From Planctomycetales bacterium (GTDB taxonomy: Bacteria; 4484-113; JAFGCY01), in assembly GCA_022646745.1 (NCBI GenBank), contig CP060262.1, positions 3,930,001-3,962,000 on the forward strand: a DNA stretch of 32,000 nucleotides, written 5' to 3'. The stretch's first letter is position 1. Every line of letters starts with the position of its first letter. Under the pieces are notes generated by a model. It saw only the letters and a program-made list of their open reading frames with translations, had not been told where the DNA came from and searched no databases. The position numbers were made by a program, and so were the translations under genes. Below, piece by piece: positions 11,101 through 28,035 of this stretch.

Positions 11101-11121
11101 CATGCTCGTCTGTGGGCGGGA

Positions 11122-12531
11122 TTGAATGCCGGGCAGCCCTCGGCTATGATCAAGGAAGAGTACCGGAGATGGCTGGAGCCATCGTATCCGGGTGGGAGCA
11201 GTATGGCGGTTCGACAACATGAACCTGAAGCAAAGCTGGACGGAGCTGTCCGGCCTGCTGCTGCGCCAGCAAAATTCCCCTCTTCACTGCGGCAGGAAAG
11301 TGGGAAAGCAGGCAGCTGGCTCGGAGCTGCCCTTGCCATCCGCCAGAATCCATTGCTGAATCTCTGGATCCTGCAGGAGAGGCGCAGGGCGGAATCCAGA
11401 AGCTTCTGGCTGTCAAACCCGGCGCTGCTGGCGGGAACATCAATTGTCAGCGTGCTCGCCTGCATCATACTGGTCCGGCAGTTACTGGCACTTGTCGAGG
11501 CCCGGACCGCCGGTGCAGTCAACCCGATGCCGGCCTCAGCCGCCTTCTGGACTGCAGTCAATGCGATCCTCTGGCTGGCGATAATCTACTTCGGCATGCT
11601 CTCCATCGGGCGGATCTTCCTCGCGATGCGCAATTCAGTCGCGCTACTGGAGACCGGCCAGGGCAACCAGCGCCTGCGGCTCGATGACAACCTCGTGATC
11701 ACGGAAATGGGCAGCCACCAGATCATCATGGCCCAGATCGCCGACAACCTGCGCCTGGTGCTGCCGGCCAACATCCCGCTGACCCTGTTGCTCGGGCTGC
11801 AGTCCCAGCTCAGCGGCTATGCAAGAATCCTTGACAACCTGCCAGGCGCGATGGACAGCCTGCAGAACCTGCTGCTGATTCCCCTGCTGTCGATAATCGG
11901 CAGCATCCTTGGCACTGTGCTCCTGGGCGCAATCCTGATCGGGGCCGGCCTGCTGGCTGACAGCACCCGCCTGCAGGTCGGGGCGGCGGTCGGTGTTTTA
12001 CTGATCCAGGCCTGGCTGTTGTTCCTGATGGCAACCGGCAGGGAGGTATTCAATCTAGGTATGGTTGAGGGCAGCGGCTGGGTGATCTCAGCGCTTGGGC
12101 TGTTCCCCCTGCTTGTAATGATGCTGCCGGTTTTCCTCGCTGGCTTCAGCCCCTTGTTTAGGCGTATCCTGGCAGGCGGACTGATCCTCTGGATGGGTTT
12201 TGCCCTGACCCTGCTGTATGGCATCTGCCTGTTGTCAGACCTGCGCATCTGGCTGGCAGAACCGAATGCTGTCGGGATGGGCCTGCAGGTCGGAAAGCAG
12301 AGCTTGCAGGTCTTCAGTTGCACGCCCCTGACAGGGATTGTCTACCAGCACTTGCAGGCGGTCATCCTCGGCAACCGGCAGGATCCTGCATTCTTCCTGA
12401 GTGTCTGGCAACCTGTCTACACCTATAGCGTCCCGCTGGCAGGATTCCTTCTGCAGGCAGCCTGCATCACCGGAGCCCTGCGCTTTGCGCTCTTGATGAT
12501 GGACAAACGGAGGCTTGGCAGCCATGACTGA
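11122..12531 (+). CDS. polytopic membrane protein, ABC-2 permease-like, paralog 4 (closest to paralog 3)
   Basis: 469-aa ORF from TTG 11122. Alternative ATG starts lie at 11146 and 11203 (GGGAG 4 nt upstream), so the start is uncertain. Motif IRQNPLLNLWILQERRRAESRSFWLSNP starts at 11347. FWLSNPALL...LVRQLLAL...AVNPMPASAAFWTAVNA aligns with FWLSSPGLL...LVRQLGIL...GMNPILASAVFWLAINA of paralog 3. Loop: LDDNLVITEMGSHQIIMAQI. Confidence 0.6.
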   Translation: MNAGQPSAMIKEEYRRWLEPSYPGGSSMAVRQHEPEAKLDGAVRPAAAPAKFPSSLRQESGKAGSWLGAALAIRQNPLLNLWILQERRRAESRSFWLSNPALLAGTSIVSVLACIILVRQLLALVEARTAGAVNPMPASAAFWTAVNAILWLAIIYFGMLSIGRIFLAMRNSVALLETGQGNQRLRLDDNLVITEMGSHQIIMAQIADNLRLVLPANIPLTLLLGLQSQLSGYARILDNLPGAMDSLQNLLLIPLLSIIGSILGTVLLGAILIGAGLLADSTRLQVGAAVGVLLIQAWLLFLMATGREVFNLGMVEGSGWVISALGLFPLLVMMLPVFLAGFSPLFRRILAGGLILWMGFALTLLYGICLLSDLRIWLAEPNAVGMGLQVGKQSLQVFSCTPLTGIVYQHLQAVILGNRQDPAFFLSVWQPVYTYSVPLAGFLLQAACITGALRFALLMMDKRRLGSHD

Positions 12532-13951
12532 CAACCATTCGGCCATGCCAGTCGAACACTCACCTGCACCTGGTCCTCCGCGGCGCTTCCTCAGGTTCGA
12601 CCGTGCACTCAGCCTGCTGCTGTTTGGGCTGCCCGCATTGCTTGCATTCACAGTCTCACTTACTGCAGTTACGGTGCCTGTTGTTCATTTCAACAGCGGT
12701 GATGAGTTTGCCGACTGGCTGTTCAATGCCGCCCTGCAGGCCCAGCATGATGCATGCTGGCAGGGTGTGAAGGCGAGCCGGGCTGCGGATAACTGGCTTC
12801 CGGAGAGCTACTATTTCAGGTCAAATGCATACTATCGGGAAAGCGTCCTCTTCGGCAACAAGCTGGCAGACGCGATCCAGCAGCAGCTGGATCTTGACCC
12901 GCATGATCCGCGGGTGATCTGGCTGGCTGCAGCTGGAATGCCCATTGATTATCGCGATTATGACAACAGCTTGCAGACAAAGTCGCGTTTCCTTCTCGAG
13001 CAGGATGCAGGGGGGATGCTGGACCGCCAGGGCCTGGAACTGCTGGCATATTTCATCAACCAGGTCGGACCGTTTGAACTGGTTGAACAGGAACGCTGGC
13101 GGGGACTTAACATTTCCTACTTCGACCTCGGCGATCCATCACAATCTGCCCTGACAGCCGAAGTCCGTGAGCAGGTGACCGATATTCTGCGGCGGGTTGA
13201 CAGTCTGCCTCCCGGCAATGCCCAGCACCTTGAACTGCGGTTCACTCAGCTGATGAACAACGACGACTTTGCCGAGGCCCTGGCACTGCTTGGCCGGTAT
13301 CCCGGGCTCGAGGCAGCGCCCAGTGACGTTGGCATGCTTGCCAGCCTCGGACTGCAGGAACCGGACGGCCTGGATGACATAACGCGTGCCCAGCTGCAGT
13401 TCTTCGGGCTTGCCAACTGGAACAACACCCTGCGCATGGACTACCAGAAAGTGCAACAGGCCAGCCGTGAGTTGCTGGCAAGCGGCAGCCTTGACAAGCT
13501 TCAGCAGCTCCACGAATTCCTCTGGAAACTCGGAGGGATGGGCAGCCCGGGCGACCAGCTTGGGCACACAGCTGAAATGCTGTCTGCCTTGCCACCATCT
13601 GTCCTGCATGACCCTGCCAACCAGGAATTCCGACTTTCACAGCAGGACATATATGCGCTGACCTCCAATTCGTGGACGGCTAATGACCCAGGCCTGCTGC
13701 AGCAGGCTGTCCTGCTCCTCGATTACCAACTCAGCGGAGAAAGGCTCGGTCTGTATGGACCGAACCCCATGTACCAGGATTACTACACTTCACAGCCAAC
13801 TCGTTCCAGGATAATCGAACAACTTGGCCCCAATGCTGCAGAACAGTTTGAGCGGATCCGCAATCTCGACTGGACATCCCTTGACCTCAGCTCAGCCCAG
13901 CCTGCTGACTTCGTTGATCCAGCTGAACAGGCCGCCTCGACTGATACATGA
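12524..13951 (+). CDS. single-pass membrane-anchored protein with large soluble (probably all-alpha) domain of unrecognised family, copy 2
   Basis: The track ORF starts at TTG 12515. ATG 12524 sits 10 nt after GGAGG (12509-12513) and overlaps the upstream stop by 8 nt. Anchor: FDRALSLLLFGLPALLAFTVSL. Then SGDEFADWLF...ELRFTQLMNNDDFAEALALL...QFERIRNLDWTSLD, which is colinear with the C-terminal half of the 8464 product. Confidence 0.6.
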   Translation: MTDNHSAMPVEHSPAPGPPRRFLRFDRALSLLLFGLPALLAFTVSLTAVTVPVVHFNSGDEFADWLFNAALQAQHDACWQGVKASRAADNWLPESYYFRSNAYYRESVLFGNKLADAIQQQLDLDPHDPRVIWLAAAGMPIDYRDYDNSLQTKSRFLLEQDAGGMLDRQGLELLAYFINQVGPFELVEQERWRGLNISYFDLGDPSQSALTAEVREQVTDILRRVDSLPPGNAQHLELRFTQLMNNDDFAEALALLGRYPGLEAAPSDVGMLASLGLQEPDGLDDITRAQLQFFGLANWNNTLRMDYQKVQQASRELLASGSLDKLQQLHEFLWKLGGMGSPGDQLGHTAEMLSALPPSVLHDPANQEFRLSQQDIYALTSNSWTANDPGLLQQAVLLLDYQLSGERLGLYGPNPMYQDYYTSQPTRSRIIEQLGPNAAEQFERIRNLDWTSLDLSSAQPADFVDPAEQAASTDT

Positions 13952-15366
13952 GACAATCAGCAACGGGGATGGATACAGCAGGCACACAACCTGGAGCGAG
14001 GAGCCGCCCACGCTGGCAGCTGATAGACCGCGCGCTGGATCTGCTGGTTGTCGGGCTGCCCCTGCTGCTGGCGCTTGCCTGTGTGATTGCCAGTTACGTC
14101 GTCAAGCCCTACCGCATGGATACCGGAGATCCCTACCTGAACTGGTATGGCAACCAGCTGATGGACAGTGCCGACCAGGTGCTGGCAACGGATCCGCTCC
14201 TGCCGGATTACTACAGCACAGGCGACTACTATCTGTTGCCTGATTTCCGCAAGCGCTTCGAGGAAGCACGAACCTCTTTCAGTGGCGATCCACGCTACTG
14301 GATGGAGTATGCCGATCTGACACGCGCCGAGATCTGGTTCGGAAGTGGTGACAACTATTCCGAACAGGACTCGGAAGCGGCTTATGAGGCAGTGATGCGT
14401 GAGGGCCTGTCCAGCCCCGGCGCCAGCCCTGAAATGTTCATCCCGCTTGAGTGCCGCCCGATCGAGACCTCAGTGCTGGCGGACGGTGTGACCCGCGGCA
14501 ACAAGGAAGGCCGACCGAATTTCCTCTGGAACCATCCGGAAGAAGTGACAGCAATGCTTGAGCAGGCCGGACGGCTGCCGGTGCAGGATACCGTCAGCCG
14601 CCTGCTGCAGGCAACATACTGGAGCTGCGGCGGGGAGTACGGGCGCGCCCGTGAACAGCTGCTGGCAATCCGGGACCAGCCGGGCCCTTCCCTGCCTGAC
14701 ATGAATGAGCTGATGATCAAGTCGGCAGCCAGACCAAACACGGCGGTCATGGCCAGCCGGGGCTGGTCCATGCAGTATCCGTCCAGCATTTACGTGGTGA
14801 ATTCTGACCTGCGCAGCGGACTGGACGAGCTGGCGGAACAGGCCTGGCTGGCCGGAGACTACGAGGTGATTGACATCCTGCGCCAGTCCATCATCGATGG
14901 CAGGGGCGCTTCCGGCACGATCCTCGGCCAGCTGATGACGACTGTCAACCTCGGCAAGGTTGACAGCCGCATCTACAAGGTCACTACCGACCCTGCTGAA
15001 CTGTCAATGATGCTAGAGCTGCGTGCCCGCAAGAATGTGTGGCGAGACAAGGTCCGCTCAACAATCGGGCGGGAACTCAGTCCCTGGGTGGTCGGACGCT
15101 GCACGCTGGAAGGTGCCCTCAGCGGTGGACGGGGCTTTCACAGCGGATACGGTATTGCCTATGGCCGTCTGCTTCAGGATGAGTATGCCGACCTGCTGGG
15201 CATCCAGCCCCAGTGGGATGCGGTTGCGAATTTCAGTTACAGCAAATTGGCCTTCCCAGACGGCTGGACACCATCTGAATCGGACCTGCGGATTGCCGAG
15301 GGAGAAATTGCCAACAATCCCGGCGAGCGCCTGTACCGCGAGGTTTCCGACGGTGAGCAACCGTGA
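13948..15366 (+). CDS. single-pass membrane-anchored protein, same soluble-domain family, copy 3 (more divergent)
   Basis: 472-aa ORF with an ATGA overlap to the upstream stop. Anchor IDRALDLLVVGLPLLLALACVI, then TGDPYLNWYGNQL. These match the anchor and first helix of copies 1 and 2. Confidence 0.55.
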   Translation: MRQSATGMDTAGTQPGARSRPRWQLIDRALDLLVVGLPLLLALACVIASYVVKPYRMDTGDPYLNWYGNQLMDSADQVLATDPLLPDYYSTGDYYLLPDFRKRFEEARTSFSGDPRYWMEYADLTRAEIWFGSGDNYSEQDSEAAYEAVMREGLSSPGASPEMFIPLECRPIETSVLADGVTRGNKEGRPNFLWNHPEEVTAMLEQAGRLPVQDTVSRLLQATYWSCGGEYGRAREQLLAIRDQPGPSLPDMNELMIKSAARPNTAVMASRGWSMQYPSSIYVVNSDLRSGLDELAEQAWLAGDYEVIDILRQSIIDGRGASGTILGQLMTTVNLGKVDSRIYKVTTDPAELSMMLELRARKNVWRDKVRSTIGRELSPWVVGRCTLEGALSGGRGFHSGYGIAYGRLLQDEYADLLGIQPQWDAVANFSYSKLAFPDGWTPSESDLRIAEGEIANNPGERLYREVSDGEQP

Positions 15367-16571
15367 GTGCCAACTGGACCAGCGCAATCCGTGGCCTGCG
15401 TGACAATCCCCTGCCGGCACTGTGGCAGCTGCAGGAACTGCGCCAGCACGGGCAGCGCAGCCGCTGGCTGTCCAGCCCCGGCTATATGCTGCTTGCCATC
15501 CTGGTCAGTGCGCTGGCCTGTTACCTGCTGCTGCTGCAACTCGGAATGGCAGGTGCGGTCTGGCAGGAGGGAGCGCACCCGGTGATTCGCCACAGCCTGC
15601 GCGGGATGGGCTTTGGCGTGTCCCTGGCTTTCACCGGAGCCATCTCCTTTCTACTGGCAATGGCCCGGCTGCACCATGGAATCCTGTTCTGCGGCAGCCT
15701 GCTGGCAATGCGGGACAGCCGCCGGCGCTGGGCCTTTGATGAGGTTGTGGCATCAACTGAGCTTGGCAACCGGGAGATCATCGCCGCGGCGATCTGGCAT
15801 TCGCTGCGCCGCGTGATGCCACCACTCGCACTCAGCCAACTGGTGTTTTCGGTGATGTCCGGCATCTGGGTGGCTGACATGCTGCATGACCACTCCCTCC
15901 CGGATGCAGCATGGCGCTGGCTGCTGCCCCTACTGTTCCTGCTGGGCATGCTGCTGCTGTCCACGCTGGCTGTCGCCACCCTTTGCGCCCTCTCGATCTC
16001 CACCAGCAGTCCTGACCAGCACCCGGCCCAGCCAATGCTGCTGGCAGCGAATGCCTACCCGCTGCAACTGCTGATGCTGGCGGCCCAGCTTCTGTTGCCG
16101 ATCTGGCGTCCAGATGAGTATTACACCGAAGCCCCATCTTTACTGGTGGTGAATCCACTGGATGTCGTCTCGCTGGGGTTCGGAATGCTGATGCCCGTCA
16201 TCATGGTCCTGCTGCTGGAACTGATGTGCCGGGCTGGCAACACCCGAAGTTATGCGGCCTTTGCCCTGCTGCCGGTGGTCGGCCTGCTGCTTGCCTTTGG
16301 CTGGGGCGTGATGTCAATTGTCTATGACGAGCTGCTGTCCTCCACATATCCGCTGGATGGACCCCTTTTCAGCCTCGCATCCAACTGGTGCATCTTCCCG
16401 TTGTACCTCAGCTATCCACTGCAGGACCTGGCCCGCAACGGTATTCCAGGCTATGCGATTCACTGGATGAGTCTCTGCCTGTTTCCCGTACATTTGCTCC
16501 TGCTCCTAGGTGCCCTTTACAAATTTGCGCAACGAGCAGCCGGGAACCTGGACCGCGAACTGCGGGTCTGA
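15363..16571 (+). CDS. polytopic membrane protein, ABC-2 permease-like, paralog 5
   Basis: 402-aa ORF with a GTGA overlap to the upstream stop. Motif LRDNPLPALWQLQELRQHGQRSRWLSSP starts at 15405. Loop: FDEVVASTELGNREIIAAAI. Multiple hydrophobic spans. Confidence 0.6.
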   Translation: MSANWTSAIRGLRDNPLPALWQLQELRQHGQRSRWLSSPGYMLLAILVSALACYLLLLQLGMAGAVWQEGAHPVIRHSLRGMGFGVSLAFTGAISFLLAMARLHHGILFCGSLLAMRDSRRRWAFDEVVASTELGNREIIAAAIWHSLRRVMPPLALSQLVFSVMSGIWVADMLHDHSLPDAAWRWLLPLLFLLGMLLLSTLAVATLCALSISTSSPDQHPAQPMLLAANAYPLQLLMLAAQLLLPIWRPDEYYTEAPSLLVVNPLDVVSLGFGMLMPVIMVLLLELMCRAGNTRSYAAFALLPVVGLLLAFGWGVMSIVYDELLSSTYPLDGPLFSLASNWCIFPLYLSYPLQDLARNGIPGYAIHWMSLCLFPVHLLLLLGALYKFAQRAAGNLDRELRV

Positions 16572-16663
16572 ACCAGCGCTTCTCCCGGGATTGTGGCGGG
16601 AACCACTGCTCCGGGTTAGAATCAAACGGCTGAAATCTGTTTCGATACTTGGGGGTATCGGAT

Positions 16664-19600
16664 ATGCGAACTGGTACTGCAGGCCATAAAAGAATGTGGC
16701 CAATTGTCGTGCTCGCCCTTGCATTGAGTGCCTGCGGCGGCAACATGGGTTCGGGCATTGTCCCTGGACCGGCACAGATAAGAAATGAAACCGCACCGGT
16801 CTATCGCAATGCGATTGGCGAATCCGAAATCGGCACACTGAATGACTGGCAGCGAGCGCTGCTTGCCGACCCAGGCTGGAATGAAGCCCCTGCTCCGGTT
16901 GAGCGGGATGGGTTTAACGCGCTGCCTGCTCCGAGCACTGAACTGCTATTGGAGCTGCTCCAGCAGCAGGCAGTTGCAGGCATAGATCAAGCTGGATTCG
17001 TGCGTGGCACTTCCGCGCTTGACCCGGTTCCGGTCGGCGCGTACAAGCCTGGCGATGTTGATGTTAATGGCATTCCCGCTTTCGGCTGCAATGCCGACCC
17101 GGCAATGATCGACATTTACCACATTGAGGATGTGATTGGCAATTACAGCCTGGATGCTGATCTGCAATTGCAGTCACCAGTTGGTTACGTTATGTATGGC
17201 GTACCTACAGTCAACCATTTCAACAAGCATGGAGACTCAGCCTCGATTCCGGCTGCCATTTCACAGGTGCTGGCCCAGCAGGACGACCAGTCCCAGAACA
17301 TTGCGATCAGCAGCATTGCTTATCTCGCTGCGCAGGATTTCTCCGTCTCACCCGGTGAGGGCAGTGGCCCTGGAGGCCCGAATGACTGCGGCCTGGCGGC
17401 ATACAGTATCCGCAATGCCTACTGGATGAGCTGGAATGAGAAATCCTTCGCTCTGCCTTCGGGCCAGACCACTGCGCTATTCAACATTTTGCCTGGTCCG
17501 TTGGATGAAGCACAGACCGGGCTAACCAACCCCATCACTTCCACCACGGCGGGCCAGCAGCCCTTCCTGTTCGGTTCCTGGATCGAGCATTATGGCAAGT
17601 CCTACATCGTCGGCATAGAATCTGCCAACAGCGGTTGCCAGATGTTCGATGACATTGCCAACACCGAATGGCGCCACAGGGTGATCGGTGGCGACCAGCC
17701 CTACCCGAACATCCTGCACAACCCGCTGTACGGCATCCTTGCGGAACGCTGGCAGCAGTCAGCCATTCCGGATACGGAGGAATGGAACAGCCAGCTCGGC
17801 TGGCCCGTGGCCCGTCCCTTTGCCTACAACAATGGAGCGCAGCTGCTCAGTGCGGACGGCCCCTACTATGCATTTGGACAGTTCTTCGAGCGGGGATTCA
17901 TCTGGTGGCTGGACTACGACCAGCAGGCCAATCCGACAGCAAGCGACCGGGCAATCCTCTACACTTTCGATGGCAGCAACACATTCTGCGATGGCACGTT
18001 TACGCGCAGCTACCCTTACCTGCATTACAACAATCAAGCAAGTGCCCCGCTTGCCGCTGACCTGCTGGTGGACCAGTATCTCGCGGGTGGCTCCGACTGG
18101 CGCCAGATCAGCCAGCAGCCTGATGGCCGCCTGCTGCGGGTTCCCTGGACTGACGAGGGAGCCAGCCAGCGCAGTGCCACTGTCCGCGCCCTTGCCAACC
18201 CCAGTGGAGGGGTGACCATCAACGGTGACGACATCGGCCATCCGGAATGGGGCAAGGGCCTGTACCGCAGCTGCACATGGCTGTGGCAGGATGGCACTGT
18301 CACCCCTGCCGGCATGGATTACGACCCGGCGCAGTTTGACATGCAGCACACCTACCTTGGCGACGGAGCTGGCATTGAAGCCATCCGCCGCATCAGGGCG
18401 CAGGTGGTGGATGCCGACGGCAACATCGCCTATGTGGACAGCCTGCCGCTGCAGATCGGCGACGGCAGCCCGGGGGCCGCCCCGGCACTGAGCGTGCTGC
18501 GGGCTGACAACGGCATGTTCCCGGATGGCTACGAAGCCCTGATTGATGATCTCGGTGAACTCGGCCTGCCCTTCAGCACCCGCAGCTGGGAAGCGGGTAT
18601 CGAACAGCAACTCGCAGACGAGGGCTGCCAGCTGGCAATCTGGTACGACGGCGGACCGGGCAGCCAGGCTGAACTTGGAAACACACAGGCCGGCTGGACC
18701 GCTGGGGAAAGGGACTCACTGATCGGCCTGCTGGAGAAGGGCATTGACGTGCTGCTGCTCAGCCAGGATGTCGCTGACAACCCGGACCCCAACCCGGGAA
18801 ACTCATGGACAGACCGCTTCGGTATGCAGCTGCTGCCCGGCGGCCAGTCCGGCACCGGCCTGCAGGGTGCATGGGGGCAGTTGCCCGGTGGCCGGATTGC
18901 CGATTTCGGCGGCGGATGGCTTCCCTCGTCCGCCCAGTACATGTCTGCCGCTTCACTGGCTTCGCTCGAGGCGATCTGTGGCGCCGTGGAACGCGGCTCC
19001 GCCGATGATGGTACCCAGCCGATGCTTGTGTCAGTCGACCCCGCCCTGCCCGTCTGCGGCATTGGCAGCGCCACCAACTGGCCGGGAGCCAGCCCCGCAT
19101 TCACTGCGGGCAGCTTCCTGTCTTCAACATCCACAGGTCCGGCCCAGGCCCTGCTGAGCTGGGGCAGCAGCGCAGCTCCGCATTCCATTGATGGCAACCT
19201 GCCTGACCCGGTCATCGCCGATGGCAATGCGCACCTGTGGGTCTATGGCCTCAGCTGGGCAGCCAGCTCTCCCGTAGGCTACCAGGGCAGCGATCGCGTG
19301 CCCGTTGCCAGGAGCAGGATGCTTCAGAATATCCTGAGCTGGCTGGACAATGATTCCCGCTACTTTGACCCGCTGCGACCACGTGGCTATTCAGGTGAGC
19401 CGGAAATCCTCTCGGTCACGCCATACCTGATCCAGTCAGACGGGCAGATCACTCCCGGCTCGACTTCACATACTGGAGTTGACTATCCGGACCCGAGCGG
19501 CAGCGATGTGCTGCGCAGCAGCCCCAACCTGCCGGATGAGAAGCACCTCGTTGTCAGTCCGGAGCATGACTCGGATGAGGACGGCATCAATGCCAATGAC

Positions 19601-20761
19601 CTTGACCTGCAGTTCCCCTTCTACGCCTACATCACCTGGGATGACAGCAAGGGGCAGGCAAACGGCGTGATCGAACCTGAAGAGATCCTCGACATCAGCT
19701 ATGGCGGCCTGCTGCTGAAGGACGATATTGACTGGCAACGGGCCAATCCCAATGCCGGCAATTATGTCCAGCCGAGCCAGCTCAACATTCAGCGTCCAGT
19801 GGCCGGTTACTACCTGTCATTCACGGGCGACAGCGGCGATGAGCTGCGCGCTTCCTATGGCTCTGCAGCGCCGCAACTTGTTACAACTCAGTACAGGCCA
19901 AAGCTGCTTGTGGAGGCAGTTGCCCACTGGCCGGCAGATGCAGCCTACGGTGGCCAGACACCAGTGCTGCGCTGGAGTATGTTCCCTGGCCATAAGGTCC
20001 AGTCTCGCAACTACATCACCGGCACCAGCTGGGTTGATGGATATGCCGGTGAATCCCCCATCCCCTGGGGCTTCTTTGTCGGAACGAACGATATCGACCC
20101 CGGCATGAAGAATTTCAGCGATGCAGATGTACTTCGCCTGCATGGAGATTTCAGCCATGTCGGCGATGGCAATGGCCGCAGCATGCTGTTTGATTACGCT
20201 ACGGTACTGGCCTTTGACGGTGACCTGGATGATGACAATGCTGCCGGCACGGCAGACAAGATTCCGATTCGTGTCCGCCTGATCACTGATTACGAAGCAT
20301 ATGGCAAGTATGCAGCTGAGGGCGGGACCTGGCCTGACCAGTTCCCCCCGGCGGACAGCTTCATTGAAGGAGGCTGCTATGTATCCCTTGCGGGCAAGGG
20401 CAACAGCTGCATGGTTGTGATGGACAATCCGGAGAAGTACGATCCCCATGAGCTGATTACCAAGGATGAAGATGGCCAGTATAGATTTGACGTCGAACTG
20501 CACTTCATCGTCGACTGCGCACCCGGACCGCTGGATGTTGATTTGGACTGGAATTACGATGGAATTGCATGGGGCAACTCCGGAAACACGCAGTATGTAG
20601 GCGTTTTCCCAGTCGAAGGCGAACTTGATGAAACAGTGAATGTGGATTTCACACCGGCAGGTGGACCTGGTACCTACTATTTCTCAATCAAGGTTTCTGA
20701 TGGTTCCGTACCTTCCCAAACTGCAACCTACACCTGGCCGGTTCCAGTTGTAATAGAGTAG
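16664..20761 (+). CDS. giant surface/periplasmic lipoprotein A (about 1365 aa), unrecognised family with an LGFP-like motif and PKD/Ig-like segments
   Basis: The track ORF starts at TTG 16649. ATG 16664 gives MRTGTAGHKRMWPIVVLALALSACGG, a lipobox LSAC. It is colinear with the 21206 product along its whole length; conserved blocks are listed in the findings. GWPVARPF...YAFGQFFERGFIWW resembles an LGFP repeat. Confidence 0.7.
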   Translation: MRTGTAGHKRMWPIVVLALALSACGGNMGSGIVPGPAQIRNETAPVYRNAIGESEIGTLNDWQRALLADPGWNEAPAPVERDGFNALPAPSTELLLELLQQQAVAGIDQAGFVRGTSALDPVPVGAYKPGDVDVNGIPAFGCNADPAMIDIYHIEDVIGNYSLDADLQLQSPVGYVMYGVPTVNHFNKHGDSASIPAAISQVLAQQDDQSQNIAISSIAYLAAQDFSVSPGEGSGPGGPNDCGLAAYSIRNAYWMSWNEKSFALPSGQTTALFNILPGPLDEAQTGLTNPITSTTAGQQPFLFGSWIEHYGKSYIVGIESANSGCQMFDDIANTEWRHRVIGGDQPYPNILHNPLYGILAERWQQSAIPDTEEWNSQLGWPVARPFAYNNGAQLLSADGPYYAFGQFFERGFIWWLDYDQQANPTASDRAILYTFDGSNTFCDGTFTRSYPYLHYNNQASAPLAADLLVDQYLAGGSDWRQISQQPDGRLLRVPWTDEGASQRSATVRALANPSGGVTINGDDIGHPEWGKGLYRSCTWLWQDGTVTPAGMDYDPAQFDMQHTYLGDGAGIEAIRRIRAQVVDADGNIAYVDSLPLQIGDGSPGAAPALSVLRADNGMFPDGYEALIDDLGELGLPFSTRSWEAGIEQQLADEGCQLAIWYDGGPGSQAELGNTQAGWTAGERDSLIGLLEKGIDVLLLSQDVADNPDPNPGNSWTDRFGMQLLPGGQSGTGLQGAWGQLPGGRIADFGGGWLPSSAQYMSAASLASLEAICGAVERGSADDGTQPMLVSVDPALPVCGIGSATNWPGASPAFTAGSFLSSTSTGPAQALLSWGSSAAPHSIDGNLPDPVIADGNAHLWVYGLSWAASSPVGYQGSDRVPVARSRMLQNILSWLDNDSRYFDPLRPRGYSGEPEILSVTPYLIQSDGQITPGSTSHTGVDYPDPSGSDVLRSSPNLPDEKHLVVSPEHDSDEDGINANDLDLQFPFYAYITWDDSKGQANGVIEPEEILDISYGGLLLKDDIDWQRANPNAGNYVQPSQLNIQRPVAGYYLSFTGDSGDELRASYGSAAPQLVTTQYRPKLLVEAVAHWPADAAYGGQTPVLRWSMFPGHKVQSRNYITGTSWVDGYAGESPIPWGFFVGTNDIDPGMKNFSDADVLRLHGDFSHVGDGNGRSMLFDYATVLAFDGDLDDDNAAGTADKIPIRVRLITDYEAYGKYAAEGGTWPDQFPPADSFIEGGCYVSLAGKGNSCMVVMDNPEKYDPHELITKDEDGQYRFDVELHFIVDCAPGPLDVDLDWNYDGIAWGNSGNTQYVGVFPVEGELDETVNVDFTPAGGPGTYYFSIKVSDGSVPSQTATYTWPVPVVIE

Positions 20762-20770
20762 CAACCTACC

Positions 20771-20812
20771 AATCATATCAGTTTCACGGGATCTCGTGAA
20801 ACTGATATGATT
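20771..20812. terminator. perfect 18-bp AT-rich inverted repeat (hairpin) 10 nt after the stop of lipoprotein A; possible terminator or attenuator without a canonical U-tract
   Basis: aatcatatcagtttcacg (20771-20788), loop ggatct, cgtgaaactgatatgatt (20795-20812). The arms are exact reverse complements. The hairpin is followed by aaaggtactt rather than a T-run. Confidence 0.4.
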
Positions 20813-20820
20813 AAAGGTAC

Positions 20821-20849
20821 TTGAAATTTGATTAATGTGTACGTATACT
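20821..20849 (+). promoter_or_regulatory. candidate sigma70-type promoter for lipoprotein B
   Basis: TTGAAA (20821-20826), 17-nt spacer, TATACT (20844-20849), in an AT-rich island directly after the hairpin. It would give a leader of about 350 nt to ATG 21206. Confidence 0.4.
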
Positions 20850-21205
20850 GTTTCCATAGCTTCGGCTGCGCTCTGGGAGCCAGCTGGAAGACACGCGCAA
20901 TTGAGGAAGTAGGAATTGCTTGATCAGCATTCGAACTTTCGGATCACAGGGGCTGCTGTGAACCTCGCAGTCCTTTGCGCGCATATTTACTACCCCGGCA
21001 CCGCATGCAATTGCCGTGCTGCGACACATGCTTCCCAGTACTCCGGCCGTCCTGGACCGGTCGAGATAATCCGGCTGAAACATACTGCATGAGGAGGTAT
21101 CTGATGTCCAGTCGTGGCAGCAGTGTTGCCACTCGAAACCCTGCCTACCGGGCGGGTCAATTGCGCTTATTAATTATTTCCATACCAACATCTATAGGAG
21201 TTATC

Positions 21206-24200
21206 ATGAAGACTCATGTGAACTGGTGTAAGCATCTCGGGCTAACGCTTGTGGCGCTTACGGTAGTCTTCGTAGCAGCTTCCTGCGGTGGTAGTGGTAG
21301 CAACGGGCTCACTTCAAATGTTGAGCTGGGAACTACCACTTCTGTTGCCCCGGGCAATGATGTCCGCGGCAATGTTTCCGCTGAGATGACCGTCTCTGAG
21401 AACGAGATCGGCCAGCTCAGTGCGGAGCAGCAGGCTCTGCTTTCAGACGCGGGCTGGAACCAGCCCTACATCGTCCCCAAGGCCGGCACCCCGATCCAGG
21501 GCCCGAGCCATGAGATGCTGATGGCACAGCTTCGTGAGATGGCTGAGCGCGGCGTCGAGATGCTGCCCCGCGGCGTCGAGGGAGAAGGCACGAAGGGAGC
21601 CAGCTGGCTTGACCAGCGCGGCTTCAACCCGGGTGTTGACAGTGGCCTTGTGAAGGGCCAGTACAAGCCCGCCGACACCGGCGCCAACGGCGTGCCGGAC
21701 TTCGGTTGCAACGCCTCCGGTGCACTGATGGCTGACAACGGCCAGTCCGACATCGAGGACGTGATCTTCGCCTACGGCGGCAGCATGCCGGCCCAGGCGA
21801 TCAGCTGGGTGGCTGAGGGTCTTTCGACCATCAACCACTTCAACAGCGTCGGTGGAGGTGGTGACGATGCGTACACCGCCGTTTACCAGCTGTTCGCTGA
21901 CAGCGAGACCGCGAACCCGAACAACCAGGGCAACAATGACATCGGTGAGATCGGCTACCGTGCCGACCTCGGCCCATATGGCGTCGGTTACGGCCAGGGC
22001 AGCGGCCCCAGCGGCACGCTGTGCGACGGAACCGCCTACGGTGTCCGCAATGCGTTCTGGATGACCTTCAACGAGAAGTTCTTCGCCCTGCCGAGCGGCC
22101 AGGCGACTGCCCTGTACAACGTGCTGATCGCCCCCAGCGGTGATGAGGGTGCGGACCAGGTCAGCCCGATGGACACCTCCGCGAACTTCCAGACCTTCTA
22201 CTTTGGCAACGTGTCCTCCTGCTATGGGGATGCGATGATCGTCGGCATCAACGCCGCTGACAGCGGTTGCGACATGTTCGACGAGGCCTCCAATGCGCCG
22301 TGGCAGGACCGTACGGCGGATGGCAACAGCTACCCGAACATCCTGCACAACCCGATCTTCGGCGTGATCCTGGCCCGCTGGGCCGGCGGCAACGCCAACT
22401 CGGACAGCCAGTTCTTCGGCGACGGCAGCTTCCCGAGTGCGGCAAGCATCGTCGGCTGGCCCGTGGCCCGTCCGTTCGCATACAACAACGGCGCCGCGCT
22501 GCTCAATGCCAACGGTGCCTACTACGCCTTCGGCCAGTTCTTCGAGAAGGGTTTCATGTGGTGGATCGACTACGACCAGAACAGCAACCCGACCGCGAGC
22601 GACGAAGCGCAGATGTACGTCTACGATGGCAACAACACCTTCTGCGAGGGTGAGTACTCCAAGGTCGAGCCCGACGTGTTCTACGGCGGCAGCGGCGACC
22701 TCGGTGTCGGCGTGACCGTGGACGGCGTGCGCTACGGTGCCGGCGACTGGTCCGCCCCGCAGCTGTCCGACGACGGTACCTATTACCAGATCGGCATGCT
22801 GCTGGACGAGAACACCGGCATCAGCAGCGTGACCATCGCTGCCAGCGCGCACGGCTTCGGCGGTGTGACGGCTGATGGCCTTGACATCGAGCACCCCGAG
22901 TGGGGCGCCTGCCTGTACAAGCACAGCACATGGTCATGGCGTGACGGTACGGTCACGGCAGCCGGCACGGCTTTCGATCCGAGCCAGTTCGCCCGTACCC
23001 ACACCTACAGCAGCAATGCGATCAAGACCAATGTCGAGGGTGTGTACACGATCCGTAACCAGGTCGTGGACGCCGATGACAACATCGCCTACGGTGACAG
23101 CCTTCCGATGCACCTCGGACACGGCGGCGCCGGTGGTGGCGGTGGCGACACCGAAGTCTGGGTCATCCGCAACGACGGCGGTGACTTCCAGCTCAACCTC
23201 GACGCCCTGACCGGCGACCTTGACGCCCTTGGCGTTGGCTACAGCGTGGTCGACTACAGCGCAACCGTCGCTGACGACTTCGCCGCCAACCCGAACGCGA
23301 AGGTCGCGATCTGGTACCGTGGTGGACCGGGTGGCGCGGGTGAGTCCGCGACCTACACCACCGCCTGGACCAGCGGTGAGATGGACAACTACATCCAGCT
23401 GATGAGCGACGGCTTCGGCGTGATGCTGATGAGCCAGAACCACGGCTACGATGGAGACCTGTTCTTCACCAACGGCTGGAGTGGCATCTACGGTTATGCG
23501 ACCCTGCCGGCCTCCGTCCCGGATGCCGACCGCCGCATGCCCTGGGCCTCCAGCCTGTGCACCGATGACGGTATCGGTTTCGGTGGTTCGCTTGGTTTCA
23601 TCCCGACCGCCCCGAGCAACTTCATCGGTAACCCGAGCGGCGCTAACTTCGGTGCCGACGGTACCAACGCCGCGGAGCGCTACACCGGTAGTGGTTCCTC
23701 GGGTGAGCTGCCGATCAGCTTCGGCATGGCAACCGGCCGCCAGTACTGCGGTATCGGTTACTACAGCTCCTTCTTCGCGGGCTCCTGCGCAGGTCCGGCC
23801 TTCCGTGCCGGTATCGGCCACCAGCCCAACGCGCTTGGCTTCGACCTGGGCTTCCTGTCCTGGGGTAACAGCCAGGCCCCGGATGCCAACATCGGCTTCT
23901 TCCCGAGCTACAGCCACAGCTTCGGCACCGGCAAGGTGTGGAACGTTGGCTACAGCTGGGCAGGCACCAGTGTGACGGCTTCCGCTTCCGGCACGATGGA
24001 CCGCGCCGACCTGCTGAACAACATCCTCGGTTGGCTGGATGACAGCCTGACCTTCGGTGGTGGCGGCGGCGGTGGCGCCGGCTTCGAGGAGTACGATGGT
24101 CCTCCGGAGATCGTCTGCGTGACCCCGATCGCCTGGGACAAGGTGAACGGCGCCGTGACGCAGGGTACCGCCGGTGTGGGTGGCCAGAACTACCCCGACC

Positions 24201-26227
24201 CGAACGGTTCCAACGTCTTCGGTCCGGATGTGACCCCCGGCTTCGATTACGCTGTCGAGTACGACACCGGCGTCCGTACCCCGGGCGACGATGACGGCGG
24301 CGTGAATGGCAACGACATGGACTTCCAGTTCCCGTTCTACGGCTTCCTGCAGTGGGACGACACCCTCGGCGCCATCCCCGGCGACGTGGAGGCTGCTGAG
24401 ATCATCGATGTCAACTACAGCGGTATCGCCCTGAGCGACATCTCCGCTGACTGGACCAAGTTCTCCGCCCCCTACGGTGGTGTGTTTGATCCTTCCGCCC
24501 TCGGCCTTGGCCGCGCAGCCGCGTGGTTCCTGACCGAGACCGACACCTTCGGTAACATCAACACCGCCAGCTACGGCGATGCCTTCGGCCCGAACCTGGT
24601 GTTCAACAACGACACCGACCTGGTTGCCACCGAGGCGATCGCGCACTGGGCACAGGGCACGATGTACGGTGGCTCCCCGGCGTACCTCGCCTGGGCGATG
24701 TATCCCGGCCACAAGTCCGTCCAGTACGACAACTCCGACACCCCCGTGGGTTACTACGGTGAGGGTGGCATCCAGTGGTACGAGTTCATCGAGGACCACG
24801 ACATCCAGGTCGGACGTGACCTGTATGCCTACCTGCGCAGCGACTACTCCTTCACCACCCCCGGTGAGGGCCGCACCGTGGACTTTGACTACGCAGTGGT
24901 CAAGGGCTGGGATGGCGACCTGAACCGTAACGGCGTGATCAGCGAGGCCGCTGACAAGTTCCCGGTCCGTGTCCGCTTCTTCACCGATGTGGATGCCTAC
25001 GATGATTACTTCGATGACCTGAACGGCTACCCGAACTTCTGGCCTGATGGCGACTCCTTCATCGAGGGTGGTTGCTACATGGTGGACGAGGGCGACCCGA
25101 ACTATCCGGTTGCAATCTTCGATGATCCGGACCTGGATGATCCGATGGCTACCGTCACCGGTTCCGGCCCGGCCTATGATGTGACCCTGAGCTACATCAT
25201 CGCCAACGGCTTCCCGAACTACGACATGAGCCTTGACTGGAACTACGACTTCATCTCCTGGGGCAACAGCGGCAACGTGATCAATGACTATGTCAGCCAC
25301 AATGCCAACGGTGCCTGGAGTGATGTCGTCAGCGTCGACCCGACCGCTGCCGGCGGCGATGGAGACTACTTCTTCGCCCTCAGGGTCGATGACGGTGACG
25401 TGCCCTCCGCCAGCGCTAACTTCTTCTGGCCCGATGCGGTGCCGCTGAAGCCCGGCCTGAGCTATGCGATCGTCGATGACAACCTCAACGCCCTCGACGA
25501 CAGCCCGGCCCAGATGCTGGCTGCGATTGACAGCTTCCTGCCCGGCCAGACCGTGATCCCGCGCGCCAGCGTCACCGCCGGCAGCGACCTCTACGGTTAT
25601 GACCTGGTGATCTGGCTCACCGAGCATGAGTGGTATGGCCTTGGTAGCCCGGGTATCCTGGCTGCCGAGATGACGATCCTCAAGGACTACCTGAACAATG
25701 GTGGTTCCGGCGGGACCGGTGGTAACCTGATCCTCTTCATGCCCGGCGAAACCGCCTGGGAGACCTTCGACGTCGGTCTGGACATGCACATCAACTACAT
25801 GGGTGGTGGTACGTCCTTCATGAACGAGCGTCACCAGTTCGACAGTGAGTGGTACAACCAGCACATCACCAACGCCGGCCTGCAGAACGGACCCGGTGGA
25901 TCCGGCATGATGATGGTTGACCATTACAGCCAGGTCGGCCCGAACCCGGGTGTCGATCCCTGGTACACCAGCGGTTACTTCGACACTCCGGCCCTGACTG
26001 CCGGCGCCGTCCAGGCGTCCTGGCTGTTCAGCACGGACCGTTCCGACGTGACCAAGTTCGACAAGAACGGCGGCGGCACCCCTGGTGGTGTCTGCGTCTG
26101 GGTTGGCCACTACTTCAAGGGCTGCATCCCCTACTTCGGCGGTGACATCTTCACCGGTGTTGCCGGAACGCAGGGCCAGTACATGCAGAACCTGATCAAC
26201 TGGACCGATCCGACCCTGCTTCCGTAG
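21206..26227 (+). CDS. giant lipoprotein B (about 1673 aa), paralog of lipoprotein A with extra N-terminal sequence and an extra C-terminal domain of roughly 260 aa
   Basis: The track ORF is open from 20975. ATG 21206 lies 5 nt after AGGAG (21196-21200) and gives MKTHVNWCKHLGLTLVALTVVFVAASCGG, with lipobox-like AASC. An alternative in-frame ATG at 21104 follows GAGGAGG (21091-21097). Codon bias is strong. A canonical terminator follows the stop. Confidence 0.75.
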   Translation: MKTHVNWCKHLGLTLVALTVVFVAASCGGSGSNGLTSNVELGTTTSVAPGNDVRGNVSAEMTVSENEIGQLSAEQQALLSDAGWNQPYIVPKAGTPIQGPSHEMLMAQLREMAERGVEMLPRGVEGEGTKGASWLDQRGFNPGVDSGLVKGQYKPADTGANGVPDFGCNASGALMADNGQSDIEDVIFAYGGSMPAQAISWVAEGLSTINHFNSVGGGGDDAYTAVYQLFADSETANPNNQGNNDIGEIGYRADLGPYGVGYGQGSGPSGTLCDGTAYGVRNAFWMTFNEKFFALPSGQATALYNVLIAPSGDEGADQVSPMDTSANFQTFYFGNVSSCYGDAMIVGINAADSGCDMFDEASNAPWQDRTADGNSYPNILHNPIFGVILARWAGGNANSDSQFFGDGSFPSAASIVGWPVARPFAYNNGAALLNANGAYYAFGQFFEKGFMWWIDYDQNSNPTASDEAQMYVYDGNNTFCEGEYSKVEPDVFYGGSGDLGVGVTVDGVRYGAGDWSAPQLSDDGTYYQIGMLLDENTGISSVTIAASAHGFGGVTADGLDIEHPEWGACLYKHSTWSWRDGTVTAAGTAFDPSQFARTHTYSSNAIKTNVEGVYTIRNQVVDADDNIAYGDSLPMHLGHGGAGGGGGDTEVWVIRNDGGDFQLNLDALTGDLDALGVGYSVVDYSATVADDFAANPNAKVAIWYRGGPGGAGESATYTTAWTSGEMDNYIQLMSDGFGVMLMSQNHGYDGDLFFTNGWSGIYGYATLPASVPDADRRMPWASSLCTDDGIGFGGSLGFIPTAPSNFIGNPSGANFGADGTNAAERYTGSGSSGELPISFGMATGRQYCGIGYYSSFFAGSCAGPAFRAGIGHQPNALGFDLGFLSWGNSQAPDANIGFFPSYSHSFGTGKVWNVGYSWAGTSVTASASGTMDRADLLNNILGWLDDSLTFGGGGGGGAGFEEYDGPPEIVCVTPIAWDKVNGAVTQGTAGVGGQNYPDPNGSNVFGPDVTPGFDYAVEYDTGVRTPGDDDGGVNGNDMDFQFPFYGFLQWDDTLGAIPGDVEAAEIIDVNYSGIALSDISADWTKFSAPYGGVFDPSALGLGRAAAWFLTETDTFGNINTASYGDAFGPNLVFNNDTDLVATEAIAHWAQGTMYGGSPAYLAWAMYPGHKSVQYDNSDTPVGYYGEGGIQWYEFIEDHDIQVGRDLYAYLRSDYSFTTPGEGRTVDFDYAVVKGWDGDLNRNGVISEAADKFPVRVRFFTDVDAYDDYFDDLNGYPNFWPDGDSFIEGGCYMVDEGDPNYPVAIFDDPDLDDPMATVTGSGPAYDVTLSYIIANGFPNYDMSLDWNYDFISWGNSGNVINDYVSHNANGAWSDVVSVDPTAAGGDGDYFFALRVDDGDVPSASANFFWPDAVPLKPGLSYAIVDDNLNALDDSPAQMLAAIDSFLPGQTVIPRASVTAGSDLYGYDLVIWLTEHEWYGLGSPGILAAEMTILKDYLNNGGSGGTGGNLILFMPGETAWETFDVGLDMHINYMGGGTSFMNERHQFDSEWYNQHITNAGLQNGPGGSGMMMVDHYSQVGPNPGVDPWYTSGYFDTPALTAGAVQASWLFSTDRSDVTKFDKNGGGTPGGVCVWVGHYFKGCIPYFGGDIFTGVAGTQGQYMQNLINWTDPTLLP

Positions 26228-26259
26228 TCACGAGCCTGATCAACTGAACTGATCAAACT

Positions 26260-26295
26260 GCCCCGGGGCCCTGTGCCCCGGGGTTTCCTTTTTTC
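26260..26295 (+). terminator. rho-independent terminator of lipoprotein B
   Basis: Stem ccccgggg (26261-26268), loop ccctgtg, stem ccccgggg (26276-26283), then tttccttttttc. Confidence 0.8.
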
Positions 26296-27967: not shown

Positions 27968-28002
27968 GCAATTTATTTAGCTATAATCTAACTGGGGTAC
28001 AT

Positions 28003-28017: not shown

Positions 28018-28035
28018 CTCAATCGACAATTATGT

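Follow-up and report, generated by a model that had tools for sequence, protein, structure and literature searches.

Giant paralogous lipoproteins of a Planctomycetales bacterium: predicted modular envelope proteins of a rare, unnamed family

Introduction

Transmembrane helices on either side of a large periplasmic domain anchor GldG. The N-terminal domain of IFT52 is a GldG/IFT "GIFT" domain (PMC9582644). SusE and SusF are surface glycan-binding lipoproteins of the Bacteroidota, in which Ig-like or other β-sandwich domains are strung together behind an N-terminal lipid anchor and binding is presumably distal. In Rhs and CdiA proteins, near-identical cores are joined at a sharp junction to unrelated C-terminal modules. 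A further type is represented by PKD-repeat lipoproteins, which have lipobox-type N-termini and an extracytoplasmic modular build with canonical Pfam PKD repeats.

Here, two large genes, A and B, from the H7A35 genome of a Planctomycetales bacterium are compared with these systems; the window is the whole stretch of 32,000 nucleotides that was analysed (Table 1). Their products look like genuine, related giant membrane-anchored envelope proteins, and modular binding or scaffolding seems a likelier role for them than enzymatic catalysis. The PKD-repeat lipoproteins P0040, P0047, P0050 and P0066 resemble them in their N-termini and general build, and carry at their C-terminus a homologue (domain HMM, E 1e-40 to 1e-81) of the ~300-aa domain called MID below. 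They possess this domain without the rest of the A/B architecture: N-domain, all-β C-region and terminal Ig-like domain are all missing, and their PKD repeats are canonical whereas A and B have no PKD match. The likeness to SusE/SusF is one of working principle only: there is no sequence homology, SusC/SusD genes are absent, and A and B are far larger and have MID and a Cys-rich N-domain. A levan utilisome chain (8aa2_G) was the top Foldseek match of the N-terminal A model, to which a pLDDT of 35 gives little weight. The Rhs/CdiA analogy concerns the architecture of the B paralogues; unlike those proteins, A and B are lipid-anchored and have no Rhs/YD or filamentous haemagglutinin repeats and no toxin domains.

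Table 1. Features of the A/B locus (window coordinates; aa, residues of the respective protein).
Feature	Position	Strand	Basis
g1-g7, upstream genes (H7A35_15855-15885)	6051..16571	+	
g cassette, five paralogous polytopic membrane proteins	6051-7229, 7226-8467, 8452-11100, 11122-12531, 15363-16571	+	
g cassette, three paralogous helical domains, putatively periplasmic	C-terminal half of 8452-11100; 12515-13951; 13948-15366	+	
Gene A (H7A35_15890, UNM08310.1), predicted giant lipoprotein	16664..20761	+	ORF, translation, paralogy with B
A, predicted signal peptide and lipobox MRTGTAGHKRMWPIVVLALALSAC24, then Gly-rich tether	16664..16735	+	direct sequence reading
A, N-domain, aa 110-465, four conserved Cys (142, 242, 325, 442)	16991..18058	+	domain HMM boundaries, 21-member conservation
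A, PKD-like β-sandwich, aa 466-604	18059..18475	+	domain HMM; motif; β-strands in low-confidence model
A, MID, aa 605-905, α/β, first ~100 aa flavodoxin-like (AIWYDGGPG ... LLLSQ ... LQNILSWLD)	18476..19378	+	domain HMM, model, Foldseek
A, C-region, aa 906-1250, predicted all-β sandwich modules	19379..20413	+	domain HMM; model of B counterpart
A, Ig-like β-sandwich, aa 1251-1365, C-terminal	20414..20758	+	domain HMM; B model; Big_9 E 0.12
Perfect 18-bp inverted repeat, 6-nt loop, 10 nt 3' of A stop	20771..20812	+	dG -30.2 kcal/mol, z = -7.5
Gene B (H7A35_15895, UNM08311.1), predicted giant lipoprotein, 1673 aa	21206..26227	+	ORF, translation
B, predicted signal peptide and lipobox MKTHVNWCKHLGLTLVALTVVFVAASC27, then GGSG	21206..21286	+	direct sequence reading
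B, N-domain, aa 126-501	21581..22708	+	domain HMM
B, PKD-like domain, aa 502-644	22709..23137	+	domain HMM
B, MID α/β domain, aa 647-963	23144..24094	+	domain HMM
B, all-β C-region, aa 964-1302	24095..25111	+	domain HMM, model, Foldseek
B, Ig-like domain, aa 1303-1415, ends in junction motif FFWPDAVPL	25112..25450	+	domain HMM, model
B, tip, aa 1416-1673, second compact MID-type flavodoxin-like domain	25451..26224	+	hhalign, iterated search, model
Strong intrinsic-terminator-like hairpin and T-run, 3' of B	26260..26294	+	

Two Colinear Members of a Rare Family

The open reading frame of A runs from an ATG at 16664 to a stop at 20759-20761 and encodes 1365 residues. NCBI places the start at the second Met (16694), which gives 1355 residues and keeps the lipobox as well. 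In B, the ATG at 21206 is preceded by AGGAG, and the stop is at 26225-26227. BLASTP aligns the two proteins colinearly across the entire length of A (764 bits, 538/1435 identities or 37%, E = 0.0), with an identity of 46% in the N-domain, 46% in the PKD-like domain, 32% in MID, 38% in the C-region and 39% in the Ig-like domain. All the conserved blocks quoted in the initial annotation of this DNA are found in this alignment, and its description of two colinear paralogues is thereby borne out.

Each translation has a single N-terminal signal and lipobox (L-S-A-C24 in A, A-A-S-C27 in B, both directly followed by GG), and no further hydrophobic segment is evident. A positively charged n-region, a hydrophobic h-region and a lipobox Cys within ~40 residues are present in both, and this type-II signal peptide, together with the lipobox Cys and the Gly-rich stretch, marks A and B as predicted lipoproteins, in agreement with the earlier proposal. 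Six of the 12 Cys residues of A align with a Cys of B, namely the lipobox Cys, C142, C242, C325, C442 and C1238. The conservation previously claimed for the Cys positions thus holds only in part: for these six, and not for the remaining Cys of A.

The family is indeed an unrecognised one. With the whole proteins as queries, Pfam gave sub-threshold noise only, NCBIfam no match and PDB sequences no match at E <= 1; neither did Pfam, NCBIfam, PDB sequence and profile searches or Foldseek lead to a confident assignment of the whole protein to a known adhesin, enzyme or S-layer family. HExxH, GDSGG and GTSxA are absent from both A and B, as had been reported. An exhaustive profile search was needed to reveal the relatives: word-indexed homology searches found only 4-7 proteins, while the exhaustive search yielded 118 matches in 1.84 billion representative proteins, every one of them in a UBP7/Planctomycetales-type MAG. 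The members have a length of 1,100-2,100 residues, and nearly all the full-length ones have in common a lipobox with CGG(G). Within this rare and so far unnamed family of giant lipoproteins of UBP7/Planctomycetales-type bacteria, A and B are two members that have diverged.

The N-Domain and the β-Sandwich Modules

In both proteins, a short helical segment is followed by an N-domain of ~350 residues, a PKD-like β-sandwich, the α/β MID domain (~300 residues), an all-β region of ~345 residues and an Ig-like domain. The N-domain is the most conserved of these regions and in A holds the block GWPVARPF...YYAFGQFFERGFIWWLDYDQ. In 21 diverse family members, its four Cys residues are either invariant or conserved to 90% or more, which would fit an oxidising extracytoplasmic site, and a set of polar residues (E155/D156, N184, Q201, E409, D417 and D428 in A numbering) is invariant or near-invariant. 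A profile search of the PDB gave no match for this domain, and no Pfam family was found at E <= 1 for the 21 N-domain sequences. The LGFP repeat (PF08310), which the GWPV...YYAFGQFFERGFIWW (GWPV...FIWW) block resembles by eye, was rejected on the same Pfam result. AlphaFold, run on residues 100-910 of A with a 9-sequence alignment, gave a model with a pLDDT of 34.8.

The conservation of this domain and of its polar residues, the acidic ones in particular, could point to a secreted or anchored enzyme, in which a novel catalytic domain, the N-domain (or MID), would degrade polysaccharides or peptides, for instance, and the PKD, Ig, β-sandwich and α/β modules would be accessories that bind the substrate, as in many multi-modular CAZymes; the β-sandwich modules are similar to GH2 and CBM proteins. 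Such an enzyme seems unlikely. Neither single-sequence nor profile searches of Pfam, NCBIfam and the PDB hit a catalytic family, a classical catalytic motif is absent, and a set of several near-identical copies, distinguished by nothing but a non-catalytic tip, suits recognition better than catalysis. With a model of pLDDT 35 for the N-domain, a new catalytic domain keeps a share of the probability, and this conservation counts against a role in binding or scaffolding, as do the lack of significant similarity between A or B and any characterised binding protein, the low TM-scores in Foldseek and the sub-threshold level of the MID matches described below.

The PKD-like domain of A displays the motif W-x-W-x-DGT...HTY...QVVDADGN, while A and B have no match to PKD (PF00801 / PF18911) at E <= 1 in Pfam; only the homologue P0013 shows one, at the position equivalent to the PKD-like region of A, where its 21.2 bits fall short of the cut-off of 27. 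Because the motif and the predicted β-strands are compatible with a PKD fold and the Pfam threshold is not reached, the domain is called PKD-like and is not counted as a member of the HMM family. The C-region of A includes the blocks DLQFPFYAYITWDD and SFIEGGCYV. In a model of the C-terminal half of B, the pLDDT is mostly 60-90 in the C-region and 81-94 in the Ig-like domain, and Foldseek returned for this model only GH2 sugar-binding/Ig domains, a CBM and Ig/FnIII proteins, at a low TM of ~0.1 over the whole model. Of the Ig/PKD-like segments that had been annotated, the Ig part is thus moderately supported by a predicted β-sandwich and the PKD part weakly, by a visible motif and the sub-threshold match of a single homologue.

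The MID Domain

Two separate models predict the β-α-β-α-β-α-β order of a flavodoxin-like three-layer α/β/α core, in MID with a pLDDT of 50-78 and in the tip of B with a pLDDT of 50-70. This agrees with the flavodoxin-like segment "AIWYxGGPG...LLSQ" of the initial annotation, although the Foldseek matches of the low-confidence A 100-910 model are only generic for flavodoxin-like folds (e.g., PurE and PTS IIB, E ~5e-3). The domain is missing from the family members P0022 and P0024 according to the domain HMM.

A more specific relationship, to GldG, ThuA or DUF4350, had been suggested as well. None of the profile matches to ThuA, DUF4350 or ABC_transp_aux (GIFT) is significant, all lying at E 0.01-0.4: MID matches DUF4350 at E 0.037 in 1 of 28 members, ABC_transp_aux at E 0.031 and BPL_N at E 0.011, and its PDB matches are to 4jqs (E 0.027) and to the GIFT domain of IFT52 (E 0.12). 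Searches of the PDB with the MID profile and with a combined flavodoxin-like profile found nothing. These links to ThuA, DUF4350 and GldG/IFT52 (GIFT) agree in direction and are mutually consistent, and they stay weak, with every one of them below threshold (E 0.011-0.12). What MID seems to share with those domains is the predicted core, an extracytoplasmic location, a non-catalytic character and the motif "hydrophobic strand - W/F - ... helix ... - GG(N) - strand", which aligns with "FEQYMENGGGWVGFH" in 4jqs and "LKKFVKNGGSILILM" in IFT52. Unlike them, it has no Cys-His-Glu triad and no ABC partner genes, and its second half of ~200 residues is specific to the family (…SWGN..APD…LWV.GY.WA…LQNIL.WL).

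Genomic Context

It had been proposed that the two genes close an operon. This does not hold as stated and is doubtful for B, as 445 bp lie between the two genes. Besides the inverted repeat, which is a possible terminator or regulatory site, this spacer contains promoter-like hexamers. Conservation of the 395 bp that precede B extends to a relative without A. In the MAG AC1.30, the upstream region of B is kept and the block of g1-g7 and A is replaced; homology with this MAG resumes at 20811, at the edge of the hairpin. On the basis of the hairpin, the hexamers and the independently conserved upstream region, B seems to form its own transcription unit, and the two genes are probably transcribed separately.

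In each of the three contig lineages that contain A, the g cassette precedes it, and a B orthologue of 90% identity occurs in a locus without any g membrane genes; the cassette is genetically linked to A and not to B. Its five polytopic paralogues have in common an N-terminal W...NPLP..W motif. None of g1-g7 matched Pfam, NCBIfam or a PDB chain. No ABC-2 family appeared for any of them even at E <= 10, nor did any other Pfam family for the five polytopic paralogues at this cut-off, and a PDB profile search for the g-family and Pfam scans of each member were equally negative.

These data bear on the link to ABC-2 permeases suggested earlier, by which A and B would serve, like GldG, as auxiliary subunits of a transporter of the ABC-2 type built from the upstream polytopic proteins. 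The weak matches of the α/β domain to ABC_transp_aux, DUF4350 and the IFT52 GIFT domain, and the constant presence of a polytopic membrane gene set ahead of A, would agree with such a link. It is nevertheless very unlikely: no ABC ATPase gene is found among the scanned ORFs of the window, the g proteins do not match ABC-2, A and B have a lipobox where GldG has transmembrane helices, MID is dispensable in some members, B orthologues occur without nearby g genes, and every similarity is below threshold. The tempting ABC-2/GldG annotation of A and B has been dropped as unsupported.

No gene partner is common to the distant family members at L007, L009 and L010. An AhpC/TSA-like gene adjoins the member at L009, and one is also present near B.

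The Tip of B and a Proposed Role

The C-terminal 258 residues of B, which are absent from A, are by profile comparison a second copy of the MID-type α/β domain (MID against B-tip profiles in hhalign: 98.4%, E 5e-15; an iterated search agrees). The same genome holds at least five further B-type copies, with cores that are 89-93% identical over 1415 residues. At the FFWPDAVPL motif there is a sharp junction between core and tip, beyond which the paralogues have either a tip 30-33% identical to that of B or an unrelated module. A "choice-of-anchor J"/MAM-like jelly roll was considered as a candidate for the alternative tip type, for which a profile search of the PDB found nothing. Neither the additional tip nor the near-identical copies had been noticed in the initial annotation.

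Such a build recalls polymorphic effectors of the Rhs/CdiA type, in which variable C-terminal toxins or effectors would be displayed on the conserved core, each with its cognate immunity gene downstream. Small variable genes do lie downstream, a BsuPI-like lipoprotein gene after B and an ankyrin protein gene after P0004. Effector delivery is nonetheless highly improbable, as the tips are flavodoxin-like or unrecognised and unlike known toxin domains, the proteins have an N-terminal lipid anchor with no secretion system encoded nearby, and in AC1.30 the gene downstream of B is not conserved jointly with the same tip. A structural role in the envelope, as S-layer-like wall components that are abundant, self-assemble and have no specific ligand, would account for the size, β-richness, modularity, lipid anchor, several genomic copies and missing enzymatic signature. 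This role is quite unlikely too: Pfam and NCBIfam give no S-layer family, the family is missing from most Planctomycetota (118 representatives only), and exchange of only the distal tip on a 90%-identical core would be unexpected for a lattice protein.

The reading that we prefer, with a probability of roughly 45%, is that A and B are lipid-anchored modular binding or scaffold proteins, of which B has an exchangeable distal tip. After Sec export and lipidation, the proteins would be anchored in a membrane by their N-terminus, with the modules reaching into the periplasm or out from the cell surface. These modules would be non-catalytic and serve as spacers and as binding surfaces for glycan or protein ligands. 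Because at least six B-type copies combine near-identical cores with divergent or unrelated tips, ligand specificity is placed in the membrane-distal C-terminal tip, and it may also reside in the Cys-stabilised N-domain. The tipless A would probably form an envelope complex with the products of the g cassette, while B would be autonomous, having a conserved upstream region and a terminator of its own.

It could further be imagined that the B genes constitute a polymorphic surface-recognition system. A stalk of ~1400 residues would be kept uniform in at least six copies, probably by gene conversion, and would carry tips of at least two unrelated types; the N-domain would have a new fold, and the tipless A would be the periplasmic or surface partner of a new, fast-diversifying g1-g7 cassette that is swapped block-wise between close relatives. 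This elaboration is speculative and, taken as a whole, rather doubtful.

If the binding or scaffold reading is true, a family of giant envelope lipoproteins that had no name is thereby defined, with at least two domains that are absent from Pfam, the Cys-rich N-domain and MID, the latter reused by the PKD-repeat lipoproteins. The conserved stalk and swapped tip would then suggest how an uncultured activated-sludge UBP7/Planctomycetales lineage varies its surface recognition, which would bear on floc formation, the capture of particles or polysaccharides and the evasion of phages or predators. The domain boundaries are now concrete and can be used in structural genomics.

Finally, the H7A35 genome contains the array H7A35_07550-07575, and tandem arrays of family genes are also found elsewhere, at L010 (three copies) and L008.

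Two paralogous lipoproteins of a rare, unnamed family

The initial annotation had described A and B as long, colinear and paralogous lipoproteins, and both parts of that description hold. The two proteins align with 37% identity over 1435 columns (BLASTP, 764 bits, E = 0.0), colinear across the whole of A and with all the conserved blocks listed earlier inside the alignment. As read from the translations, A opens with MRTGTAGHKRMWPIVVLALALSAC-GG and B with MKTHVNWCKHLGLTLVALTVVFVAASC-GG, in each case a signal peptide with a lipobox. An exact look-up identifies B as UNM08311.1 (H7A35_15895; Planctomycetales bacterium, 4,112,261-bp contig) and A, counted from its second methionine at 16694, as UNM08310.1 (H7A35_15890). 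Both, like the upstream genes H7A35_15855-15885, are labelled "hypothetical protein". The start of A is ambiguous between 16664 and 16694: NCBI and other gene callers use the second methionine (MWPIVV..., 1355 aa), whereas only the longer form carries the positive charges (HKR) expected in the n-region of a signal peptide.

For A and B, Pfam gives nothing above cut-off (the best, Big_9 at E 0.12 and TY-Chap3 at E 0.0098, lie far under their cut-offs), NCBIfam gives no match, and no PDB sequence is found at E <= 1. A word-indexed search of 5.8 billion proteins returned 4-7 relatives. An exhaustive profile search (query residues 25-1200) of 1.84 billion representatives returned only 118 proteins at E <= 1e-3, 67 of them at E <= 1e-30 and about 20 full length (1,300-2,100 aa); a signal peptide followed by "...C-G-G-G" opens nearly all full-length members. 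The close relatives come from metagenome-assembled genomes labelled "bacterium AC1.30" and "UBP7 HKST-UBA01", the farther ones are labelled Planctomycetales. This is a genuine family, rare and as yet without a name. Large modular lipoproteins with PKD and Ig domains are a familiar class, and Planctomycetes-like genomes often encode giant hypothetical surface proteins; new here are the family itself, which brings at least two domains not yet catalogued, a paralogue set with conserved stalk and variable tip, and a block-swapped cassette of novel membrane proteins.

Domain architecture

Domain HMMs, cut from a six-sequence alignment and run on all collected homologues, give the series of domains in the table.

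Features of the window and domains of A (nucleotide positions, or residues in A numbering where marked aa)
Feature	Position	Strand	Remarks
BamB/PQQ_2-like β-propeller genes, four in tandem	698-5659	-	signal peptides or lipobox; divergent from cassette
g1-g7	6051-16571	+	seven genes upstream of A
A	16664-20761	+	ATG 16664, stop ends 20761; 1365 aa (ORF/translation)
Helical segment	aa ~50-109		ESEIGxLSxxQQxLLxDxGWN
N-domain	aa 110-465
PKD-like domain	aa 466-604
MID domain	aa 605-905
C-region	aa 906-1250
Ig-like domain	aa 1251-1365
Inverted repeat	20771-20812		perfect, 18 bp, 6-nt loop; 10 nt 3' of A stop; RNA dG -30.2 kcal/mol, z -7.5; without T-run
B	21206-26227	+	ATG 21206 with AGGAG before start, stop ends 26227; 1673 aa (ORF/translation)
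BsuPI-domain protein	26523-27176	+	"...LLASCGGGS" lipobox; directly after B terminator
AhpC/TSA (thioredoxin-fold) protein	27248-27895	-	lipobox
NrtR-like ORF	28036-28752	+
Long ORF ending in NYN domain	28463-30058	+

The N-domain is the most conserved part (46% between A and B), with four conserved cysteines and invariant polar residues; it has no PDB match with a 21-sequence profile and no Pfam match member by member. The conserved cysteine pattern proposed before holds in part, at six positions common to A and B: the lipobox cysteine, the four of the N-domain and one in "EGGCY". Those invariant polar residues could belong to a new catalytic domain. A motif scan, in agreement with the initial annotation, found no HExxH, GDSGG or GTSxA in either protein, and we consider a catalytic N-domain unlikely.

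A structure model of A 100-910 from nine sequences failed (pLDDT 34.8). Its sole moderately confident unit, at about 610-700, has the order β-α-β-α-β-α-β and matches generic flavodoxin-like folds in Foldseek (PurE, PTS IIB), in line with the flavodoxin-like segment proposed earlier. In the model of B 955-1673 (26 sequences), the C-region and the Ig-like domain are usable (pLDDT mostly 60-94) and all β. This agrees with the suggested Ig-like segment. The Foldseek matches of this model are all of a generic β-sandwich kind. They comprise GH2 glucuronidases (Ig and sugar-binding domains, E 8e-5), a CBM that binds porphyran, and Ig/FnIII proteins, with a TM of about 0.1 over the whole model.

A second α/β domain in B and the affinities of MID

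An iterated search links the extra C-terminal 258 aa of B with one or two homologous domains in seven distant proteins (P0082, P0087, P0093, P0095, P0100, P0107, P0114), in all of which one tail-type copy occupies the position of MID. A profile of 28 MID sequences aligns with one of 15 such compact domains over the first 90 columns (hhalign 98.4%, E 5e-15). The α/β domain is therefore present twice in B, and the model of B's tail has the β-α-β pattern of MID. MID is absent from some members (P0022, P0024), and canonical PKD-repeat lipoproteins (P0040, P0047, P0050, P0066) have it at their C-terminus without other family domains; it is thus a mobile extracytoplasmic module outside Pfam coverage.

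All weak matches of MID point in the ThuA/DUF4350/GldG direction indicated by the initial annotation, but none is significant. DUF4350 matches 1 of the 28 MID sequences (E 0.037). The compact copies match BPL_N (E 0.011), ABC_transp_aux (E 0.031), DUF2194 and DUF4960, and against the PDB the profile finds 4jqs (E 0.027), IFT52 (E 0.12 and 0.3) and a flavodoxin (E 0.37), all sub-threshold. The helix-GG(N)-strand motif falls inside these PDB alignments. At its N-terminus, IFT52 has the GldG/IFT "GIFT" domain (PMC9582644). Combining the flavodoxin-like halves into one profile brought no improvement. MID is therefore called flavodoxin-like only and is not assigned to a ThuA, DUF4350 or GldG-type family; it probably belongs to the glutamine-amidotransferase-like class, without the catalytic residues.

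Linkage of A and B and the membrane cassette

The order g-type cassette, A and then the start of B at a contig end is also found in the two other A-containing lineages (loci L001 and L002/L003), and the B-like KDL44_05315 adjoins the A-like KDL44_05320. In AC1.30 (locus L005), DNA identity with the window is 88% for 5557-6047, 84% for 20811-26295 and 80% for 27269-31912, while 6048-20810 (14.8 kb, g1-g7 and A) is swapped for a divergent 8.3-kb block (L005 1120-9420) with five g-type genes (32-55% protein identity) and without A. On this comparison the whole block of g1-g7 and A is a variable cassette. In UBP7 HKST-UBA01 a B orthologue, 90% identical, stands with unrelated upstream genes. The 395-bp leader of B is conserved and contains promoter-like hexamers, and a strong terminator-like hairpin follows the gene. 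Contrary to the initial annotation, B thus probably does not close the operon: A goes with the membrane cassette, whereas B looks like a unit of its own. The inverted repeat behind A, which coincides with the right-hand edge of the variable block, may serve as a terminator or operator, or mark a recombination boundary. The B-type genes of AC1.30 have frame changes, one in L005 (~12154) and many in L008 (1-3537, 9821-13964), which may reflect either errors of long-read assembly or true pseudogenes.

The g1-g7 genes have no Pfam or NCBIfam match. Five of them encode polytopic membrane proteins, paralogous to one another, that share a W...NPLP..W...R motif conserved at the N-terminus. There are also three paralogous helical domains, of which one is joined to a membrane paralogue and the other two lie behind single anchors; these are two further unannotated families. 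The charge distribution suggests an N-in topology, which would place the helical domains in the periplasm. No Pfam, NCBIfam or PDB match was found for the three helical domains. The ABC-2 permease partnership raised at the outset is not supported: the membrane family has no PDB match with a 10-sequence profile, no member matches an ABC-2 family at E <= 10, and no ABC ATPase is present among the ORFs scanned. Despite the direction of the weak MID matches, a GldG/ABC-2 system is very improbable.

Conserved cores and variable tips

At least five further B-type paralogues occur in the same genome as B: H7A35_07550 (P0006), 07555 (P0138), 07560 (P0005), 07575 (P0131) and 15075 (P0141). Over the first ~1415 residues they share 89-93% identity with B. 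Beyond FFWPDAVPL follow tips of ~200-260 aa: in 07550, 07555 and 15075 a domain of B's type with only 30-33% identity, in 07560 and 07575 (and in the homologue P0004) an unrelated module of ~200 aa without PDB match. Tandem arrays exist elsewhere, with three 2,100-aa copies in locus L010 and two in AC1.30. With anchoring at the N-terminus, the variable module would lie at the end farthest from the membrane. The contrast suggests that the core evolves in concert while tips are exchanged, and the near-identical cores probably explain metagenome contig breaks inside B.

Our preferred reading, with a probability of roughly 45%, is that these are lipid-anchored, non-enzymatic modular binding or scaffold proteins whose distal tip has been diversified among paralogues, with A, which lacks a tip, as partner of the membrane cassette; the place of the proteins in the cell, their lack of catalysis, the binding of ligands and the assembly into complexes are predictions of this reading. 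An S-layer-like structural role, which their β-rich build might accommodate, is improbable beside tips that differ so much among paralogues. Exchange of C-terminal modules could also recall a polymorphic-toxin-like system, which in lipobox-anchored proteins is scarcely credible.

Neighbouring genes

The divergent β-propeller genes have the same layout in L001. Downstream of B lie genes for a BsuPI-like lipoprotein, which is missing from the corresponding place in AC1.30, an AhpC/TSA-like lipoprotein, NrtR, an NYN protein and PhnD. The NrtR-like and NYN ORFs overlap by ~290 nt in different frames, and the true start of the NYN-domain gene is probably further downstream. A second AhpC/TSA protein (L009 9167-9832) lies directly upstream of a distant family member; such proteins could be thiol-disulfide partners of the cysteine-containing family proteins, or their proximity could be a coincidence.
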